In this document: positions 6,729 through 16,585 of the stretch, one piece after another | Numbering within the stretch: position 1 is the first letter of the stretch | Layout of the letters: every line of letters begins with the position of its first letter | Translations under genes and position numbers: made by a program | UHGV virus genome: UHGV-0131805 | Length of the DNA: 16,585 nt | Origin: a virus | Strand: one strand, 5' to 3' | Notes under the pieces: generated by a model | Databases searched by the model: none | What the model saw: only the letters and a program-made list of their open reading frames with translations | Told to the model about the DNA's origin: nothing

Positions 6729-7229
6729 TCAGACTTTCGGCAAATCGTAACGACATAACCATTCATCCGCCGAACGGCGGGCCTCAAGACCGGGGAGTTT
6801 CACCCCCTTCGAATAAATCCAGCGGATATACTGCTTACAGGACGCGGGCATCTGCCCGGCATTGATAAGGCGCAGGAGCGTGGAGTTGCGAAAGTTAGTT
6901 TCACCGGCCCAGAAAATCCAGGAGGCCAGCGCCACCGTCTGACCACGGGTAAGCGGCACCTGAACATGACGATCGATAGCCGCAAAGGCCCATTTCATGT
7001 CCTTTTCCAGCAGCTCAAGACATTCTTCATCGGTTTTTGTCATACCCGGTTTCACATCCGGCCCGGTATGGCCGTAACAGATGGTGAGGGTGCCGGTGGG
7101 ATCAGTGTACGTGGTGTTTTCTTTCCCTTCCCAGTAGCCGGTGTAGTGCGTGGCAATGGTGAACGTCCCGGCTCCGGCCAGAACAAGGGCAATCAGCTTT
7201 TTACGCAGTGGCGCGGGGAGTTTTGGCAT
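6729..7229 (-). CDS. SAR endolysin (phage lysozyme, T4-lysozyme-like catalytic triad)
   Basis: N-terminal basic stretch plus weakly hydrophobic Gly/Ala-rich segment (RKKLIALVLAGAGTFTIA) typical of signal-anchor-release domains. Then EGKENTTYTDPTGTLTICYGHTG, giving the E-x8-D-x5-T triad of lysozyme-family endolysins. Confidence 0.8.
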   Translation of the reverse strand: MPKLPAPLRKKLIALVLAGAGTFTIATHYTGYWEGKENTTYTDPTGTLTICYGHTGPDVKPGMTKTDEECLELLEKDMKWAFAAIDRHVQVPLTRGQTVALASWIFWAGETNFRNSTLLRLINAGQMPASCKQYIRWIYSKGVKLPGLEARRSADEWLCRYDLPKV

Positions 7230-7230
7230 T

Positions 7231-7268
7231 GTTACGCTGTCTCATGGTGTTCTCTGAGTCAGCGTAAC
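7231..7268 (-). promoter_or_regulatory. 14-bp inverted repeat (one central mismatch) with 10-nt spacer, ending 2 nt upstream of the endolysin start codon
   Basis: Plus strand GTTACGCTGTCTCA (7231-7244) and TGAGTCAGCGTAAC (7255-7268) are reverse complements except one position. In the minus-strand mRNA the 3' arm covers the region where the lys Shine-Dalgarno would sit. Confidence 0.4.
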
Positions 7269-7300
7269 CGTGGGGAAAAGAGGGCAGGATTTGCGGAATA

Positions 7301-7723
7301 TCAGAAAAGCCGGGGCTGCGTGCGCTCCTGATGCAGGCGACGCTGGTTGCGGATAACGGAGTAAATCTGCGTCTCTGACATCTGGTAGTGGCGGCGCAGG
7401 GTTTCAATTTTTTCGCCCTGGCTCCAGCGGGAAAAAATTTCATTATTGCGCAGCTCGGTGAAAAGGGACTCACCGACCGGGAGATAATAACCACGCCCGC
7501 CCATGTACCCGGCCTGAGCGGCCGCAACCTTACGGGCAAGCATACCCGCCTGAGCAGGTTCAATCCCCTGACGGTGCAGTTCAGCACTGATTACATCAAC
7601 CAGGTCACGCAGCGTGCCGGGCCAGTTCTTTTTCAGCTCATCATCAGGAATGTCATCCAGACGGTCAATCAGCGCGTGCAGCTGTTCGCTGTCACCAAAC
7701 ATGCTCATCTGTGTTTCAGCCAT
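7301..7723 (-). CDS. Mor/C-family phage transcriptional activator
   Basis: 140-aa protein immediately downstream of the GemA-like gene and upstream of lys, with a basic C-terminal region as in Mu Mor/C. Only one Mor/C-type gene is present, so Mor versus C cannot be distinguished. Confidence 0.6.
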   Translation of the reverse strand: MAETQMSMFGDSEQLHALIDRLDDIPDDELKKNWPGTLRDLVDVISAELHRQGIEPAQAGMLARKVAAAQAGYMGGRGYYLPVGESLFTELRNNEIFSRWSQGEKIETLRRHYQMSETQIYSVIRNQRRLHQERTQPRLF

Positions 7724-7793: not shown

Positions 7794-8306
7794 TTAACGG
7801 GGGAATGATTTTTCATACAGCCTGCAAACACGCTCATAACTCATCACTGCACGCTCCGACATATCCAGGGCGGCCAGCATTTTGCGGCGGTGCCAGCGTT
7901 TGAGACGCTCCAGCACATCAGAGGCCAGCGCGGGGTGTTGCTCCAGCCACTGCCAGTTAGCCACACCTTCGCCGCCGTTCTGCGCGGCCGTCTGCGATTT
8001 CACCCAGCGGTTAAGGGCCGTTTCCCCGCCATCAGCGATAAATCCCTGCCGGTGCATCACTTTCCAGATGGCGCGAATTTTGGCGGTCACCGTACCCGGT
8101 TTTAAGGCCCGGTTAACCGGTTTCTGACGCACTTTAAAACCGCGTTTTTTGAAAACATCCAGCACGCGGGATAACTCATCCGGTGACATATCCCGGCAAC
8201 TGGTTTTGCCGGTGGCCGCCAGCAGCGCGGATGTATAGGTTTCATGGTCAAGCTGTAGATCGCGTTTTGCGACATGTATTAAGGTAATCAGGGAAGCGCG
8301 ATTCAT
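7794..8306 (-). CDS. GemA-like (Mu gp16 family) early regulatory protein
   Basis: 170 aa; N-terminal LITLIHVAKRDLQLDHETYTSALLAATGKTSCRDMSPDELSRVLDVFKKRGF resembles the GemA/DUF1018 pattern as I remember it. Lies directly upstream of the Mor/C-like gene as in Mu. GGAG 9-10 nt upstream of the ATG. Confidence 0.55.
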   Translation of the reverse strand: MNRASLITLIHVAKRDLQLDHETYTSALLAATGKTSCRDMSPDELSRVLDVFKKRGFKVRQKPVNRALKPGTVTAKIRAIWKVMHRQGFIADGGETALNRWVKSQTAAQNGGEGVANWQWLEQHPALASDVLERLKRWHRRKMLAALDMSERAVMSYERVCRLYEKSFPR

Positions 8307-8319
8307 TATCGTGGCTCCA

Positions 8320-8348
8320 TAAAAAATGGGCGGTGTTACCGCACCGCC
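8320..8348 (-). terminator. Hairpin plus U-run on the minus strand at the 3' side of the AT-rich island, immediately upstream of the GemA-like RBS; possible terminator or attenuator
   Basis: 7-bp GC-rich stem GGCGGTG / CACCGCC (8329-8335 and 8342-8348), 6-nt loop, then on the minus strand CATTTTTTAT. Confidence 0.4.
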
Positions 8349-8378
8349 ATATTAACACTTCAAACGAAAAGGAATGTT

Positions 8379-8639
8379 ATGAATAAAGAGAAACAACCCT
8401 ATGATGTTGCAGCCTATGTTATTGCTTCAAAACTACTGAGCCTTCTGGTTGATAAAGGCATTGTAACCCCGTCTGAAGGAACGAATATCTGCACTTGCGC
8501 AAAAGAGCTATTACCCAGCGCATCTGCCATGCGGGCAACTTCCTCGCATGGAATGCAACTGGAGAAACTCCTTCAGGATGTTATTGATTCCTTTCCGGCA
8601 CAGGATCAAGAAGGAGATTCCGAACGTCAAACGCCTTAA
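8379..8639 (+). CDS. Hypothetical 86-aa protein; the only plausible plus-strand gene in the window
   Basis: AAAGGAA lies 5 nt before the ATG. No competing minus-strand ORF covers 8307-8510. Its 3' end overlaps the minus-strand gene 8581..8898 by 59 nt. Product not recognised. Confidence 0.4.
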   Translation: MNKEKQPYDVAAYVIASKLLSLLVDKGIVTPSEGTNICTCAKELLPSASAMRATSSHGMQLEKLLQDVIDSFPAQDQEGDSERQTP

Positions 8640-8898
8640 TCTCATGATCCCGTGTGATAATATCTGACTCATCAAGGCCAAGCCTGCGTCGAATAAATTC
8701 GTTGCGGGCTTTTTTGTTAAACAACACAATTTCATCCTCAATCATTGCGATTTCATTATTAATAACGAATTGCGTCTCCGTGACAGTTAAACCCTGTTCA
8801 ATTGCCATTTCCACTATCACCCGCATTCTCTCCAGCATTCCCGCTTTTTCCAGTTCTTCGTTAATATCTTTACACTCAAATTTGATTTCTTGTTCCAT
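8581..8898 (-). CDS. Hypothetical acidic 105-aa protein, last gene of the AT-rich island
   Basis: Start set at ATG 8898 (MEQEIKFECKD...), one nt after the TAA stop of the upstream zinc-ribbon ORF; the ORF-track start at 8913 is a GTG. E/D-rich composition. No motif recognised. Confidence 0.5.
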   Translation of the reverse strand: MEQEIKFECKDINEELEKAGMLERMRVIVEMAIEQGLTVTETQFVINNEIAMIEDEIVLFNKKARNEFIRRRLGLDESDIITRDHEIKAFDVRNLLLDPVPERNQ

Positions 8899-8899
8899 A

Positions 8900-9043
8900 T
8901 TATTCATTCTCACAATTCATACATGCAGTGTCGTCGCCCATATCGCAGAGATTACACTTGCTCTCACCACAATATGGGCACTCTTTCAGATACTCCGGAG
9001 CCTCATTTCCACAGGTGGGACATTCAACAATTTGCTCATCCAT
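8900..9043 (-). CDS. Small zinc-ribbon protein with four CxxC motifs (47 aa); absent from the ORF track because it is under 60 aa
   Basis: Hand translation of the minus strand gives MDEQIVECPTCGNEAPEYLKECPYCGESKCNLCDMGDDTACMNCENE. Motifs CPTC, CPYC, CNLC and CMNC. AAGGAG lies 7 nt upstream of the ATG; stop TAA is 1 nt before the next gene's ATG. Confidence 0.5.
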   Translation of the reverse strand: MDEQIVECPTCGNEAPEYLKECPYCGESKCNLCDMGDDTACMNCENE

Positions 9044-9058
9044 TATCTTTCTCCTTAT

Positions 9059-9229
9059 TCAGTCTTCTGCGACATTCGGCACAGTCATCAGGGCTTTCAA
9101 ATGTATCCGGCTCGCGATTATGAGCCAGATATAACCACCGCCTACATATACTGATATTATCGCCTGTTTTAAAAAATGATGCTTCTTGGCCATCAGAGGA
9201 CGCGCCCATCCAGCGGGTAGACTATTCAT
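9059..9229 (-). CDS. Small 56-aa ORF with a central hydrophobic segment; absent from the ORF track
   Basis: Hand translation gives MNSLPAGWARPLMAKKHHFLKQAIISVYVGGGYIWLIIASRIHLKALMTVPNVAED. ATG overlaps the end of the upstream gene (ATGAATAG) and is preceded by GGAGG at 9-nt spacing. Coding status uncertain. Confidence 0.35.
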   Translation of the reverse strand: MNSLPAGWARPLMAKKHHFLKQAIISVYVGGGYIWLIIASRIHLKALMTVPNVAED

Positions 9230-9554
9230 TTGCTTTATCCTCCATACTGGACAGAATCATATGTATTAATGTCGGGCGTGGAGATATACGCATTTCATTA
9301 AGCGTCTGAAGGGCAGCAACAGCTGCCTGTTTATCGGTGCCTTTGGCAATTTCCGCAAGAGAATGCACAATCCATAACGGACTTAACGCCACGACTGAAT
9401 CCAGAATCATGTCATCCATAATAATTTCTGACACATCCCGCTTGTCACATTCCTTATCCATAAAAGAAACGATTTTTTCCACATCTTCCGGTTTCATGCC
9501 TCCGGCGATAAGAATTTTGCGATACTCATAAGACGATCTTAATTCAATACTCAT
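9222..9554 (-). CDS. Hypothetical acidic protein (about 110 aa) in the AT-rich island
   Basis: ORF-track start 9596 overlaps the stop of the upstream membrane gene (ATGA), but the in-frame ATG at 9554 (MSIELRS...) has AGGAG at 6-nt spacing and is preferred. D/E-rich. No motif recognised. Confidence 0.5.
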   Translation of the reverse strand: MSIELRSSYEYRKILIAGGMKPEDVEKIVSFMDKECDKRDVSEIIMDDMILDSVVALSPLWIVHSLAEIAKGTDKQAAVAALQTLNEMRISPRPTLIHMILSSMEDKANE

Positions 9555-9592
9555 ATTCATCTCCTGTAACTCTGACAAGGACGTGATTTTTC

Positions 9593-9778
9593 TCATTTAT
9601 GTTTTCCAGTAATACGTATATATATGTCGATAAGAAGATTCATAATAAACAGGAAGAGCGACATCCTGATAAAGAACCAAATATCTGGCATCATGGACAG
9701 GTTTCCTGTAATCGCAAATATAAAACCAACCCCCAACACCGGAACGATAATTGCGAAAAATACAAGTCTCTTTATCAT
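9593..9778 (-). CDS. Small membrane protein (61 aa, two predicted TM helices), first gene of the AT-rich island
   Basis: Two hydrophobic stretches (LVFFAIIVPVLGVGFIFAI and FFIRMSLFLFIMNLLIDIYI). ATGA start/stop overlap with the upstream 183-aa gene; GGGAG 9 nt upstream. Strongly AT-rich codons compared with flanking genes. Confidence 0.5.
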   Translation of the reverse strand: MIKRLVFFAIIVPVLGVGFIFAITGNLSMMPDIWFFIRMSLFLFIMNLLIDIYIRITGKHK

Positions 9779-10326
9779 GGCGTTAACTCCCGTAATACAG
9801 CGTCCTCGGCAGTCCGGCGACGGTAATAAACAGCGTGAGCAGAATGTTCAGATATGCCAAACTTTTCGCCAATTTCCCGGAATGACAGACGGCGAGGGTA
9901 ATCGGAATCCCGTAGTGCACGTATAAGACGAACATCCTCATCAGATATACGTGTGCCGGGGCGTAACTCACCGCACTTTGTTAATCCGGCACCAATCATT
10001 CCTGCGCGGCACCTGACAGAGTCTTTATTACGTCCGAGATAATCCCCCATTTGCTGGCAGGTCATTGTCCGGGCATTTTTTCGGATAAATTTATCTTCAT
10101 CAGGTGTAAATCGCGGTCGTTTATATTTCAGCAACTCCGGGTATGTACTGCGCAATACGCCAGTCCGGTTATATACGGCCCAGACACTTCTTTTTATTCT
10201 GGCGGCAATATCCTTGACCGGGGTGGAGGAATAAAGCGCAATCAGCAGCGCGTCTTCTTCAGGTGTCCACGGGCGGACATGAGCGGGTGCACAGCCTTTT
10301 CCCCCCATGGGTTGTAATTTCATCAT
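9775..10326 (-). CDS. Hypothetical DNA-binding protein (183 aa) with two tandem W/F-TP-[ED]ED helix-turn-helix-like repeats and a C-terminal HTH-like segment
   Basis: Internal repeat visible in the translation: WTPEEDALLIALY...VWAVYNR and FTPDEDKFIRKNA...VRCR (Myb/SANT-like spacing). C-terminal LSFREIGEKFGISEHSAHAVYYRR resembles an HTH. Family not confirmed. Confidence 0.45.
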   Translation of the reverse strand: MMKLQPMGGKGCAPAHVRPWTPEEDALLIALYSSTPVKDIAARIKRSVWAVYNRTGVLRSTYPELLKYKRPRFTPDEDKFIRKNARTMTCQQMGDYLGRNKDSVRCRAGMIGAGLTKCGELRPGTRISDEDVRLIRALRDSDYPRRLSFREIGEKFGISEHSAHAVYYRRRTAEDAVLRELTP

Positions 10327-10329
10327 GCA

Positions 10330-10845
10330 TCACCCCCTGACTCGCTTTTCAGCAGCATAAAACTCGTCTGACAGTATTTCGGTCATTTTCTGTTTTGCGG
10401 GTTTTACGCCGCACTGAAGGTAAATCACATCATCAACACAGAACCATTTCACGGGGCCATACAGGATTGCCGAGAAATCAATGCCCAGCCAGAACAACAG
10501 GGCATCGGTTCTGGCATACGTGACGGGCGAATATTCACGCCACAGACTGTTCAGTTCGTCAGAGGCAGTGCGCAGGGCTTTGGGAATGCGCGATGTGCGC
10601 GGCGTGCAGCTCCAGCCATTCGCCGCTGTCGGTTTTCGCCATAAATCACGATGAAAAGGATATTTGTCATCCGTAAAACGCAGCCCCTTAAAACAAAAGC
10701 CACTGATACCGGATACAAATACCGGGCGGCACTCAACATTCAGCACGGCCTCAAGGCGTTTTGCCTCATCCTTAACTTTCTGGCAGTCCTGCTGATATTT
10801 TTGCCACGCAGCCAGCGCGGAAGGGTTTGATGTTTTAAAGAACAT
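10330..10845 (-). CDS. Hypothetical early-region protein (171 aa)
   Basis: Start ATG overlaps the upstream stop (TAATG); GGAGG 8 nt upstream. No motif recognised. Confidence 0.5.
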   Translation of the reverse strand: MFFKTSNPSALAAWQKYQQDCQKVKDEAKRLEAVLNVECRPVFVSGISGFCFKGLRFTDDKYPFHRDLWRKPTAANGWSCTPRTSRIPKALRTASDELNSLWREYSPVTYARTDALLFWLGIDFSAILYGPVKWFCVDDVIYLQCGVKPAKQKMTEILSDEFYAAEKRVRG

Positions 10846-11378: not shown

Positions 11379-11523
11379 GAATTATTTCCCCACCACATTA
11401 TTAATGACGATGTAAACGTATTTCATATTTCTTACCCCTTATTTTCTGTTTTCAGGCGCAAGCAGTCCCCTGACGCGAGCGCCATAATTAAAATGAAGTG
11501 ATATTTAATTGATTAATTCGGTG

Positions 11524-13359: not shown

Positions 13360-13587
13360 TTAGCTGATTCGTTTTGCACCGATAAAACGACAAATATTGC
13401 TGTAAGCTTCTTTCGCACCTTCACGATCAAGTCCTGCCGATATTGCCATTCTGGTGCGATCATTAAATTCAAAAAGTAAATCGCCACATCCTTCACTGTC
13501 AGACACGGAGACTGCTTTGACGTTATCGAAATTCACCAGGTGAAAGCGTCCGTAAATATCAGGAATATTAAATGCAATCATAATCAC
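13360..13587 (-). CDS. Hypothetical small early protein (75 aa) immediately downstream of B
   Basis: ATGA start/stop overlap with the MuB-like gene. No motif recognised. Confidence 0.45.
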   Translation of the reverse strand: MIMIAFNIPDIYGRFHLVNFDNVKAVSVSDSEGCGDLLFEFNDRTRMAISAGLDREGAKEAYSNICRFIGAKRIS

Positions 13588-14516
13588 ACCTGTGAGAGTA
13601 ATTCAGGGTTGGCATAAACCTCTTTAAAGGCCGCATTAATATGTTTTTCTGTCAGCGCCGCGCCTTCACCACTGGCGGTGATCCACGCCTGGTTAAGTGT
13701 ATGTGTCAGAACACGTAACGCTCCCGGCTTTTCAGCGATCGCCTGCATGACGGCCAACTCTGCCTCACCACTGATACCCCATGCACGGGCAATAGCCAGC
13801 ACATCGGCCTTTTTGGCCTTGCGAAGTTGTTTTGTACGGGCAAGACGGCTGAACAGGCGCGATAAATCATCAAAGGCGCGGCGTCCGCCTTTAAACAGCC
13901 CCTTTGGGTTACCGATAAGCACCATCCCGATCCCCGTGGCGTCCTGAATTGCCCGGAGTTGCTCCAGACCGTCAATACCAAGATGATCCGCCTCATCCAC
14001 AATCACCAGTCCGCGCGTTCCCATCAGGCGACGGCGGATGGCGCGGGACAGTGCCCCTTTGTTCGCGCGGGTGTAATCAATCCCCAGCGCATCGGCCAGC
14101 TCCAGCAGACACTCCGTGACGCTGGAGTGCGCGGGTGACAGGGTGATCATCCAGGTGTTTGGTTGCTCCTGGCAGTAATTACGGGCGGTGGCCGTTTTAC
14201 CTACCCCCGGCACGCCCACTATGACGTTAATACAGCCCATCAGGCGAACCGCCTGAAACAGCGCGCGCAGTTCCTGGACTGTCTGCGTTTCCACAAACTG
14301 CGGCGGTTCCGGCAGTGCGCTTTGGTTATTCCAGTTCTCATACCAGGAATGCAGGGAAGCCGCCACAGCAGCGTTATCGCCTTTATATTTTCCCTTGCGG
14401 AAAGCCGATAATGTGCCGTCAGAAATACCCGCCTCTCTGGCGATGGCATACTGCGTCAGTACGCCGCCATCAATAAGTTCATCTATGGTCTTGATTACAT
14501 CGTTAATATCAGTCAT
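13584..14516 (-). CDS. B: MuB-like DNA transposition protein B (AAA+ ATPase, target DNA activator)
   Basis: Walker A GVPGVGKT and Walker B LVIVDEADHL in the translation. Segments LPEPPQFVETQTV, LSRAIRRRL, KKADVLAIARAW and EKPGALRVL track Mu B as I recall it. Directly downstream of the transposase gene. Confidence 0.85.
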   Translation of the reverse strand: MTDINDVIKTIDELIDGGVLTQYAIAREAGISDGTLSAFRKGKYKGDNAAVAASLHSWYENWNNQSALPEPPQFVETQTVQELRALFQAVRLMGCINVIVGVPGVGKTATARNYCQEQPNTWMITLSPAHSSVTECLLELADALGIDYTRANKGALSRAIRRRLMGTRGLVIVDEADHLGIDGLEQLRAIQDATGIGMVLIGNPKGLFKGGRRAFDDLSRLFSRLARTKQLRKAKKADVLAIARAWGISGEAELAVMQAIAEKPGALRVLTHTLNQAWITASGEGAALTEKHINAAFKEVYANPELLSQV

Positions 14517-14597: not shown

Positions 14598-16585
14598 TCA
14601 GGCCAGCGGGTCATTTTCTTTTAATTTCGCTTCAAGCAGCTGTAATCCCCGCTGGAAATTACGCTCGTATTCTTCGTCAGGTTCATCATCAATCGCTGGC
14701 TGCTGAACGGTCACCGTATTACCCACAGGGCGGTATATGTTTTCCAGCCATGGCTCCTGCGGCTTGTGCTCCAGCACGTTGACCACCTCATCCTCGGCAT
14801 CACGAATTTTTTCCTCTGCGCGTTTACGCATGCCTTTAAGACGCTGCTGCTGTTTGTAGTATTCCGCGCTGACCGGGAAGGCTTCGCGTTTATTGCCGTC
14901 CCATACCGCCTCGCAAATCACGCTGCCATCCAGGCGACGCACGGTAATTCGTTCGGCATCATGAATGTCATAGCTGATAAGCACCTTACGGCCATGCTCA
15001 TCACGCAGCTCGGGCGCGTAGTAAATATTATTCAGCCAGCGTATTTCGCAGCGTCTTACAGGGCGTTCCACCATCGGCCGGAACATATCCCGCAGCTCAA
15101 CATCGGACAGCCATTCAATTTCCGTGTCCTCTTCTGCCAGGCGTTTTTTTCTGAACTCCGCCGGGCTGTAATGCTTACCGTTCGGCTTCATCGGTAATTC
15201 ATCGTGCGGCCGGTTGTTGTACCACTCAACACCGTCACGAATGGCATCAATCAGTTCAGACCAGGACGGTAAATCACGCATCGCTGACTGCTGCCGGGCG
15301 TTCAGCCGCTTACCCTGTTGCAGGGCAGTGAATGCCGAGCGTAAATCGCGGTTGGTTTTGCGTAACGTCTCGCGATCTGCACCTTTTCCGAAATAGGTGC
15401 GGTATTTACGGGCTATGCGCATCGGTAATGTGCGGTTAAGCCGTTCGATAATGCCTCGCCCCTGCGGATTCCCGGCAATTCCGGTCGGGTGATTAATCCC
15501 CAGGCGCGGCAGGATCCCCACAACCTCCTTATCCAGGATGTCGGCGGTTTCCCCCGAGCCGTTATCCGAGTAATACAGGAACGGTTTGCCGTGATGGCGA
15601 ATACCGTGCTGTATGGCCCCGGCTACGGCGAAAACATTTTCAGCCAGGTCAAGGCTCCAGCCCACCACAAAGCGCGTACCACCGTCGATAACAAAGGTCA
15701 CTTCCGGTGCAAATGGCCGCCCGTGAACCGGGTGCGCACATTTCAGCTTCATGCCGTGACCGTCACCAATCCAGACATAATTCACCGGCATTTTTGACCA
15801 GTCGCGGCGCGTGAATCCCTCAAGCGGGGGGTATTCACTGCCGGTCACCCGGCCTTTTTGTTTCACCACTTCCGGCAGTTTCTTCATTGCGCGGCGAATG
15901 GTGTCATAAGAGGGCATGATATCGAGCATATAAGGCTCATCAGCGTGCCGGTGTTGCCATTCAGCAACAAAATCCTCGTAAGCCTCGGTCATGGGGCGGC
16001 CGTTTGACTGGCGATACTGCACCAGAAAATCGGGTAGCCAGTTAATATCTTCGGCCTTTATTTCCTTGCGTTTGCCTGGCGCCAGTAAAAGCAGGCGTTC
16101 AGTAGCGTTCTGCGCCTTGTTAAAGGCCGCAATCCAGCGTTTCAGCGTGATTTCACTCAACACGCGGCTGTTTCCCTTTTTGGCGTTTGCCGTCTCAACC
16201 ATTGCCACAATGCGCTCGTCCAGCTGCGAACGTGCCAGGTTGTCAACGATAAACCGGATAGCCTTCGCGCAGCTGAAACCGGGTTGTTGTGCGACTTTCA
16301 TCACTTCGCTGACGATCGCGATTCGTGCATCAGCCACCTGACGCTGATTTTCGGTCAGGGCATTGAGGCGTTCGACCATCAGTTGTGGTGATCCGCGATA
16401 TGCCTCCACCGCATCAACCACGGCTGATGAGCGTCTGGCCTTTGTCACCACCGGAGCCGGTGATTCGTCGGCTTTTTGCGTCATCAGTTGCAGGGCGTAG
16501 CGTTCGCGTACTGCCTGCTGAACAGTTAAAGGCAAAGCTCCTATTTCACACTCTAAAACTTTCCCTTTTACCCCTGGTTTTAGCC
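14598..16585 (-). CDS. A: MuA-like DDE transposase, 5'-partial (N-terminus lies beyond the right window edge)
   Basis: DDE triad context VWIGDGHG, LYYSDNGSGE and GRGIIERLNRT. The reading frame is open from 16535 to the window end, and that in-frame extension (GVKGKVLECEIGALP) resembles the Mu A segment GVKGGKAIEYNANSLP that I recall lying roughly 35-50 residues into MuA. Confidence 0.85.
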   Translation of the reverse strand, partial: LKPGVKGKVLECEIGALPLTVQQAVRERYALQLMTQKADESPAPVVTKARRSSAVVDAVEAYRGSPQLMVERLNALTENQRQVADARIAIVSEVMKVAQQPGFSCAKAIRFIVDNLARSQLDERIVAMVETANAKKGNSRVLSEITLKRWIAAFNKAQNATERLLLLAPGKRKEIKAEDINWLPDFLVQYRQSNGRPMTEAYEDFVAEWQHRHADEPYMLDIMPSYDTIRRAMKKLPEVVKQKGRVTGSEYPPLEGFTRRDWSKMPVNYVWIGDGHGMKLKCAHPVHGRPFAPEVTFVIDGGTRFVVGWSLDLAENVFAVAGAIQHGIRHHGKPFLYYSDNGSGETADILDKEVVGILPRLGINHPTGIAGNPQGRGIIERLNRTLPMRIARKYRTYFGKGADRETLRKTNRDLRSAFTALQQGKRLNARQQSAMRDLPSWSELIDAIRDGVEWYNNRPHDELPMKPNGKHYSPAEFRKKRLAEEDTEIEWLSDVELRDMFRPMVERPVRRCEIRWLNNIYYAPELRDEHGRKVLISYDIHDAERITVRRLDGSVICEAVWDGNKREAFPVSAEYYKQQQRLKGMRKRAEEKIRDAEDEVVNVLEHKPQEPWLENIYRPVGNTVTVQQPAIDDEPDEEYERNFQRGLQLLEAKLKENDPLA

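Follow-up and report, generated by a model that had tools for sequence, protein, structure and literature searches.

To our knowledge, most of the 'semi-essential' early region of the model phage Mu has no assigned function. A single gene of this region, gp15, faces the other way. In the RefSeq genome of Mu it is annotated as Mup15/gp15 (NP_050619.1, NC_000929 complement 7896..8162), between gp14 (E15) and gemA, and the record of phage SfMu carries its counterpart, SfMu_16, in the same place and on the same strand. An analogous 79-aa plus-strand ORF (WP_032204020.1, phrog_32893) is annotated by PGAP in E. coli prophages. The two public records for Mu disagree about this gene. RefSeq NC_000929 has the leftward gp15, whereas the updated GenBank record, AF083977, drops it and annotates Mu_54 (55 aa, 7960..8127, on the early strand and with a ribosome-binding site, RBS) over the same DNA. 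Our literature search found no paper on the function or phenotype of gp15, or on leftward transcription of the early region.

The DNA analysed here, the 16,585-nt stretch of UHGV virus genome UHGV-0131805 that we refer to as the window, is a Mu-like prophage with early and late genes all on the minus strand. These include genes for transposase A (14598-16535), B (13584-14516), a Gp12-family protein (10330-10845), GemA (Mu gp16; 7794..8306, Pfam PF06252, E 8e-29), Mor (7301-7723, Pfam PF08765) and lysozyme (6729-7229), with the portal and terminase genes farther down the window. The region 6729-7723 holds one Mor/C-family activator gene (7301-7723) with the lysozyme gene directly after it, where Mu has mor, gp18-20, C and lys. 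Minus-strand ORFs tile the window, and the sole gap of more than 150 nt in minus-strand coding, at 8307-8580, is filled by an ATG-started plus-strand ORF of 86 aa at 8379-8639, the divergent neighbour of gemA. A smaller second gap (145 nt, 11379-11523), which is AT-rich, separates the Gp11-like gene from the next gene upstream.

The plus-strand ORF encodes a homolog of Mu gp15. It matches phrog_8747 over its full length (E 2.7e-18; residues 1-84 against positions 1-83 of the 88 in the profile). A tblastn search with the window protein matched Mu (E 7e-14, 99% query coverage), and among phage genomes the matches were to Mu, SfMu and three Yersinia Mu-like phages, with 43.5% identity over 99% of the query and on the strand opposite the early genes. 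By alignment, the window and Mu proteins are about 44% identical. The likeness to Mu extends to the surroundings. The two proteins are similar in length (86 aa in the window, 88 in Mu) and are encoded on the same strand relative to the early operon; both genes diverge from gemA across a spacer of about 70 nt with the same hairpin, and both face a convergent, overlapping gp14 with the same terminator inside it. The window copy differs in being a distinct allele, with one small cluster, 97% identical, as its nearest relative in the databases. The GC content of the gp15 stretch is 0.44-0.46, compared with 0.54-0.60 in the gemA/mor flank.

The layout of gemA, hairpin and gp15 facing gp14 is common to the window, Mu, SfMu, D108, and E. 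coli and Salmonella prophages. Six types of allele, very divergent from one another, share it: Mu/SfMu, D108, Salmonella, two E. coli types and the window type. All six have an intact frame, the N-terminal two-helix motif and a plus-strand terminator hairpin within gp14, and we interpret this to indicate that gp15 codes for protein and forms a unit with its own terminator on the repressor strand. The ORF has also been called by independent gene callers in a near-identical prophage and in Salmonella prophages. Weak cross-hits join phrog_8747 with phrog_32893 (E. coli type) and phrog_38610 (D108 type). Members of the latter two resemble window gp15 in position, strand and N-terminal motif, but are only 19-36% identical to it and have unrelated C-terminal halves, and the D108 form carries a 30-residue acidic N-terminal extension. 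The D108 locus (GQ357916, L032) has 376 nt between gene 14 and gemA that the record leaves empty. On the minus strand of this locus, at 1139-1498, lies an unannotated leftward ORF of 119 aa with a match to phrog_38610 (E 8e-83) and the gp15 N-terminal core motif. It shares its RBS, the hairpin before it and the terminator behind it with the other alleles.

A word-indexed homolog search with the single window protein matched only one cluster, at 97% identity, and an exhaustive HMMER search of 1.8 billion proteins returned six representatives at 50% identity. The gp15 family is thus small and enterobacterial. At 90% identity its members form 22 clusters, every one of them from Escherichia, Salmonella or unlabelled reads, and a scan of genome contigs with one genome per species gave no gp15 match. 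As regards identity and coding alone, these comparisons make it highly probable that the ORF at 8379-8639 is a real gp15-family gene. We conclude that window gp15 is a new, divergent member of an already known, uncharacterised Mu-like gene family, rather than a new kind of immunity or antitoxin gene.

The first-pass annotation, made from the letters of the window alone, had placed this gene at the edge of an island of accessory cargo. The comparison with Mu contradicts this. There gp13, gp14 and gp15 hold the same position next to gemA, and an ortholog of Mu gp15 in its standard gemA-adjoining position is not an island boundary gene. The variable cargo proper of the window prophage lies farther left than gp15, at 9222-10326. 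At 9036-9229 the minus strand has two ORFs, of 57 and 56 aa, that overlap; the related Mu-like element L002 has a single ORF of 65 aa in their place. The T-run at 9171-9176 is T6 in the window and T7 in L002, a 1-nt homopolymer frameshift that could reflect a pseudogene, a sequencing error or slippage.

Coding evidence for the plus-strand frame

To compare gp15 across relatives, 29 loci were collected. The plus-strand frame is open, ATG-started and 79-88 aa long in 29 of the 29, whereas lack of conservation in related elements had been named beforehand as a finding that would tell against the gene. Upstream of the window ORF we read the RBS AAAGGAA on the plus strand (8367..8373, with AAGGA at 8369-8373), 5 nt before the ATG, and all allelic types have AAGGA or GAGGA at 4-8 nt before the start codon. 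The longest rival minus-strand ORFs within 8379-8639 are 38-39 aa. The first-pass description of an ORF with a convincing RBS and no competing minus-strand ORF therefore stands.

Between alleles at 51-64% nucleotide identity, the plus-strand frame has no stops and shows the highest amino-acid identity of the six frames. Its BLOSUM score is likewise the highest of the six (2.0-2.7, against at most 2.15). NG86 omega for this frame is 0.2-0.3 within the L001 clade, an E. coli type, and 0.5 for L016/L019, a pair for which one of the antisense frames gives a lower value; the underlying counts are small, so that these values are supportive rather than decisive and purifying selection is only moderate. 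In four L001-type database variants of the 79-aa allele (P0016, P0019, P0021 and P0023), the N-terminal 45 residues are intact, but a frameshift has made the C-terminal half unrelated. Either the N-terminal hairpin alone is under constraint, it seems, or these copies are in decay.

Flanking hairpins and the overlap with gp14

The spacer between gemA and gp15 is 72 nt long and contains a hairpin on the minus strand (8319..8348). A terminator scan identified it as GGCGGTG-N6-CACCGCC (8348-8329) followed by the tail CATTTTTTAT (8328-8319) with U6, and this is the same minus-strand hairpin and U-run that had been noticed upstream of the ORF at first pass. Taken alone, the fold is unexceptional (z -0.7). 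However, the stems of the dyad are invariant and the loops variable across the window, L001, Salmonella, Mu, SfMu, L016 and D108, even where the spacer has diverged. The U-run that follows the dyad on the early strand has six residues in the window and L001, five in Salmonella and three to four in Mu, D108 and L016; the window form, with U6, is terminator-like, in contrast to the UUU of Mu. In the Mu GenBank record, a 'semi-early promoter' of gemA is placed in the equivalent spacer. The hairpin at 8319-8348 may be an early-strand terminator or attenuator before gemA-mor, or the dyad may be a DNA site for protein binding; it shows no covariation, so that RNA and DNA roles are inseparable. We also considered a site for a Mor/C-type activator at the invariant dyad and discarded it because the geometry does not fit: with the dyad centred about 40 nt ahead of the ATG, a position of -43 would put the transcription start inside the ORF.

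Upstream of gp15, a tool scan for sigma-70 promoters gave 0 sites, and a PWM scan gave no candidate conserved in position across alleles. The best PWM candidate in the window and Mu was discarded because its -10 element falls on the gp15 start codon, which is incompatible with translation of the ORF.

At the other end, RNA folding and comparison of the alleles point to an intrinsic-terminator-like hairpin and U-run for a gp15 transcript (8680..8718, plus strand). The hairpin (8680-8711) has 13-15 bp and begins 40 nt past the stop codon, the U-run spans 8710-8718, with the tail UUUUUUGUU, and the fold has an energy of -17.7 kcal/mol (z -2.8). Equivalents with a U-rich tail occur in the L001, Mu, L016, Salmonella and D108 types. 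Across eight distinct sequences, pairing is kept in 95% of cells, compared with 43-50% in controls with slid partners, and two of ten pairs show compensatory changes. This conservation is partly protein-driven, as the terminator falls within the stretch of gp14 that encodes the conserved motif ARxE(F/Y)(I/V)RRRLG. The U-run is present on the gp15 strand only. The Mu counterpart coincides with a TransTermHP terminator, 7839..7873, in AF083977. An Rfam search gave nothing near gathering scores.

The convergent partner of gp15 is a homolog of Mu gp14 (E15) on the minus strand (8581..8898, 105 aa; phrog_6075, E 1.1e-29), 43.8% identical to Mu gp14 by tblastn. The gene probably starts with the ATG at 8898, the start also called in two other assemblies, rather than with the GTG at 8913. 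Gp14 is hydrophilic; its AlphaFold2 (AF2) model is all-helical (pLDDT 70), and a fold search with it returned generic helical bundles only, with no informative match. Reading from the sequence, the two coding regions share 59 nt (8581-8639), and the plus-strand terminator lies 72-130 nt into gp14. The overlap is thus exactly as long as the first-pass annotation had it. In Mu it is 62 nt, and every allele retains a convergent overlap, of 20-62 nt. Also borne out is the early claim that read-through of the early operon would be fully antisense to gp15, in that early transcripts reaching gemA cross the whole of the gene.

Allele exchange, deletion and the encoded protein

Comparison of the window with the L001 type of E. 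coli reveals an abrupt change in similarity at gp15. Identity is 92% for GemA and 73% for residues 1-30 of gp14, but falls to 27% for gp15 and 37% for the remainder of gp14. DNA homology stops at 8370 and is back at 8820. We take gp15 and the C-terminal two-thirds of gp14 to constitute an apparent exchangeable cassette, with at least six very divergent alleles swapped between similar backbones. Its limits are the invariant hairpin at the gp15 end and, at the opposite end, the conserved gp14 N-terminus and gp13.

Natural losses of gp15 also exist. In Yersinia phage vB_YpM_3 (MT374852; L033, 1150-1260), a plaque-forming isolate, gp14 is followed by gemA 51 nt on. Aligned to Mu, this phage has a clean deletion between ATCA repeats, which took out about 68 codons of gp15 together with its start and RBS and left gp14, the spacer hairpin and gemA intact. 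In vB_YpM_23, examined by tblastn only, there is a match to gp14 and none to gp15. The clean deletion in vB_YpM_3, with gp14 kept, indicates that gp15 is accessory and dispensable for plaque-forming growth. The module is also missing from other Mu-like elements. In the element of Stx2c phage LC727881 (L002, 3600-3896), the block of hairpin, gp15, gp14 and gp13 is replaced by an unrelated 98-aa gene (phrog_17269) on the early strand, the stop codon of which overlaps the gemA start. This replacement marks the gemA-adjoining region as a swap site for cargo.

The window gp15 protein is predicted to be small, acidic and soluble, with three helices in a generic bundle. The AF2 model, from a 17-sequence alignment, has helices at residues 7-25, 31-47 and 61-71 and a mean pLDDT of 72, with 84-90 for the first two helices. 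The conserved part of the protein is the N-terminal hairpin, which has the shape of a helix-turn-helix and the motif DVA(A/G)(Y/F)x(I/M)A(S/G)xLxxxLxxKGxI(T/S)xxE(G/A)xxI. The C-terminal halves are wholly different between alleles. A membrane protein was considered and rejected: the maximum 19-residue hydropathy, 1.45, is below the typical transmembrane threshold, and there are charged residues in the helix. Searches of Pfam, NCBIfam and PADLOC gave no match for gp15 or gp14, even at E 10; the gp15 profile found chance-level matches only among PDB sequences, and fold searches with gp15 returned only generic helical bundles, with no functional clue. The SHOCT-like family PF22746 did not match window gp15. 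It was hit by the L016 allele only (E 0.003), at 17.5 bits and thus below the cut-off of 27.

Expression, rival explanations and known systems

We consider it on balance probable that the window gene is the ortholog of Mu gene 15 and that it has an accessory role and is expressed in opposition to the early operon. Transcription of gp15 would run against the early operon, in the same direction as the repressor gene c. Early transcripts that reach gemA are antisense to gp15 and would collide with its transcription, which suggests expression chiefly when the early promoter Pe is repressed. The protein would then be made mainly while Pe is quiet, in the prophage or very early in infection, and the firing of Pe would shut gp15 off by convergent transcription and fully antisense early RNA. 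Gp15 would probably act through protein-protein contacts in an accessory, moron-like capacity (host modulation, exclusion or counter-defence) rather than as a core regulator. Its transcription, together with the hairpin and U-run at 8319-8348, may also damp read-through of the early operon into gemA-mor. The part of this model that concerns timing and accessory function, with expression from the prophage, we put forward tentatively when it is taken by itself. A bolder version would treat gp15 and the C-terminal part of gp14 as a hypervariable, horizontally swapped specificity cassette of Mu-like phages and gp15 as the sole early-region product, besides the repressor, that is expressed from the prophage. 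Gp15 would then serve the lysogen by excluding other phages, or by protecting it against them or against a host defence, with allele-specific targets, and would be switched off on induction by convergent early transcription. We regard this version as speculative and unlikely.

Alternatively, the plus-strand ORF could be the antisense shadow of a real gene on the early (minus) strand, the 55-aa Mu_54. Mu_54 uses the antisense frame in which third codon positions coincide with those of gp15, and which stays partly open (38-61 aa) in several alleles, and AF083977 both gives it an RBS and omits gp15. Counter to this, the Mu_54 frame is cut to 38 aa in the window, with another start, and to 46 aa in the L001 type, so that neither length nor start is conserved. 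Mu_54 has no PHROG match, amino-acid conservation in its frame is below that of the plus-strand frame in all diverged comparisons, and the conserved ATG, RBS and terminator belong to the plus-strand frame. An early-strand gene here is hardly credible. With the plus-strand frame open and best conserved, and the Mu_54 frame shortened elsewhere, shifting in its start and without a PHROG, we take gp15 to be the gene, and not Mu_54. The GenBank annotation of Mu is probably wrong at this point, and these comparisons argue for restoring gp15 in place of Mu_54. A plus-strand unit could still matter mainly as RNA. Leftward transcription or RNA across 8379-8718, by interference or by a duplex of at least 59 nt with the 3' end of the gp14/early mRNA, would then set early transcription into gemA-mor, with the ORF secondary or incidental. 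In favour of such a role, early transcripts have to pass through some 270 nt that code for nothing on the early strand and lie wholly antisense to gp15, a terminator-like hairpin stands at the gemA-proximal end, every allele has a convergent overlap (20-62 nt), and the plus-strand terminator is conserved. But a pure RNA function fails to explain why the frame and the N-terminal amino-acid motif are kept at only 41-64% DNA identity, and the RBS is conserved as well. Furthermore, vB_YpM_3 and the L002 type, which are without gp15, still have gemA-mor and are viable or intact. We therefore think it unlikely that RNA is the main product, and a dual role of gp15 protein and RNA is possible.

It had also been suggested at first pass that the gene is of an immunity or antitoxin kind, which would make gp15 the partner of gp14 in a toxin-antitoxin-like or exclusion pair. 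In its favour, the C-terminal part of gp14 co-varies with gp15 as one cassette, the 3' ends of the two genes overlap in every allele, and convergent pairs with overlapping 3' ends exist among type I toxin-antitoxin systems. Physical linkage alone accounts for the co-variation, however, and plaque-forming vB_YpM_3 has an intact gp14 without gp15. Neither protein matches a toxin-antitoxin or defence model in PADLOC, Pfam or NCBIfam, and the genes are convergent rather than co-operonic. With its 105 aa and its hydrophilic, helical character, gp14 is no short membrane toxin, and gp15 lacks an antitoxin-type DNA-binding fold. The suggestion is not sustained by these findings, and we consider such a pair very improbable. 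Returning to the reading of gp15 as an accessory Mu gene 15 ortholog, the gene is real, conserved in position, separately terminated, exchanged as divergent alleles and dispensable in the lytic cycle. This makes it a defined candidate for an accessory function expressed from the prophage. The comparison also yields an unannotated D108 homolog, an embedded terminator and natural gp15 deletion mutants.

Among known systems, type I toxin-antitoxin loci with convergent 3' overlap include txpA/RatA, bsrG/SR4 and par of pAD1. Gp15 and gp14 are likewise convergent, with coding regions that overlap at their 3' ends, and an RNA duplex of their putative transcripts is predicted. They differ in that both partners are conserved hydrophilic proteins (86 and 105 aa) with no short hydrophobic toxin, and gp14 persists without gp15 in a viable phage. 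The difference from type II toxin-antitoxin systems lies in the convergent arrangement, in place of a co-directional operon, and in the maintenance of gp14 without gp15 in vB_YpM_3; there is also no recognisable toxin and no match to a helix-turn-helix (HTH), RHH or AbrB-type fold. Prophage morons are exemplified by bor and lom of lambda and by HK97 gp15, the last of which is unrelated to the gene studied here and shares only its number. For gp15 we found no moron-like promoter, either in the sigma-70 scan (0 sites) or as a candidate conserved across alleles, and the protein has no kinship in sequence or fold to any characterised moron product. In other respects gp15 resembles the morons. It is a small accessory gene with its own conserved terminator (8680-8718) and a GC content below that of its flanks, its orientation would allow expression independent of the lytic operon, and it is variable between related phages and dispensable for lytic growth.
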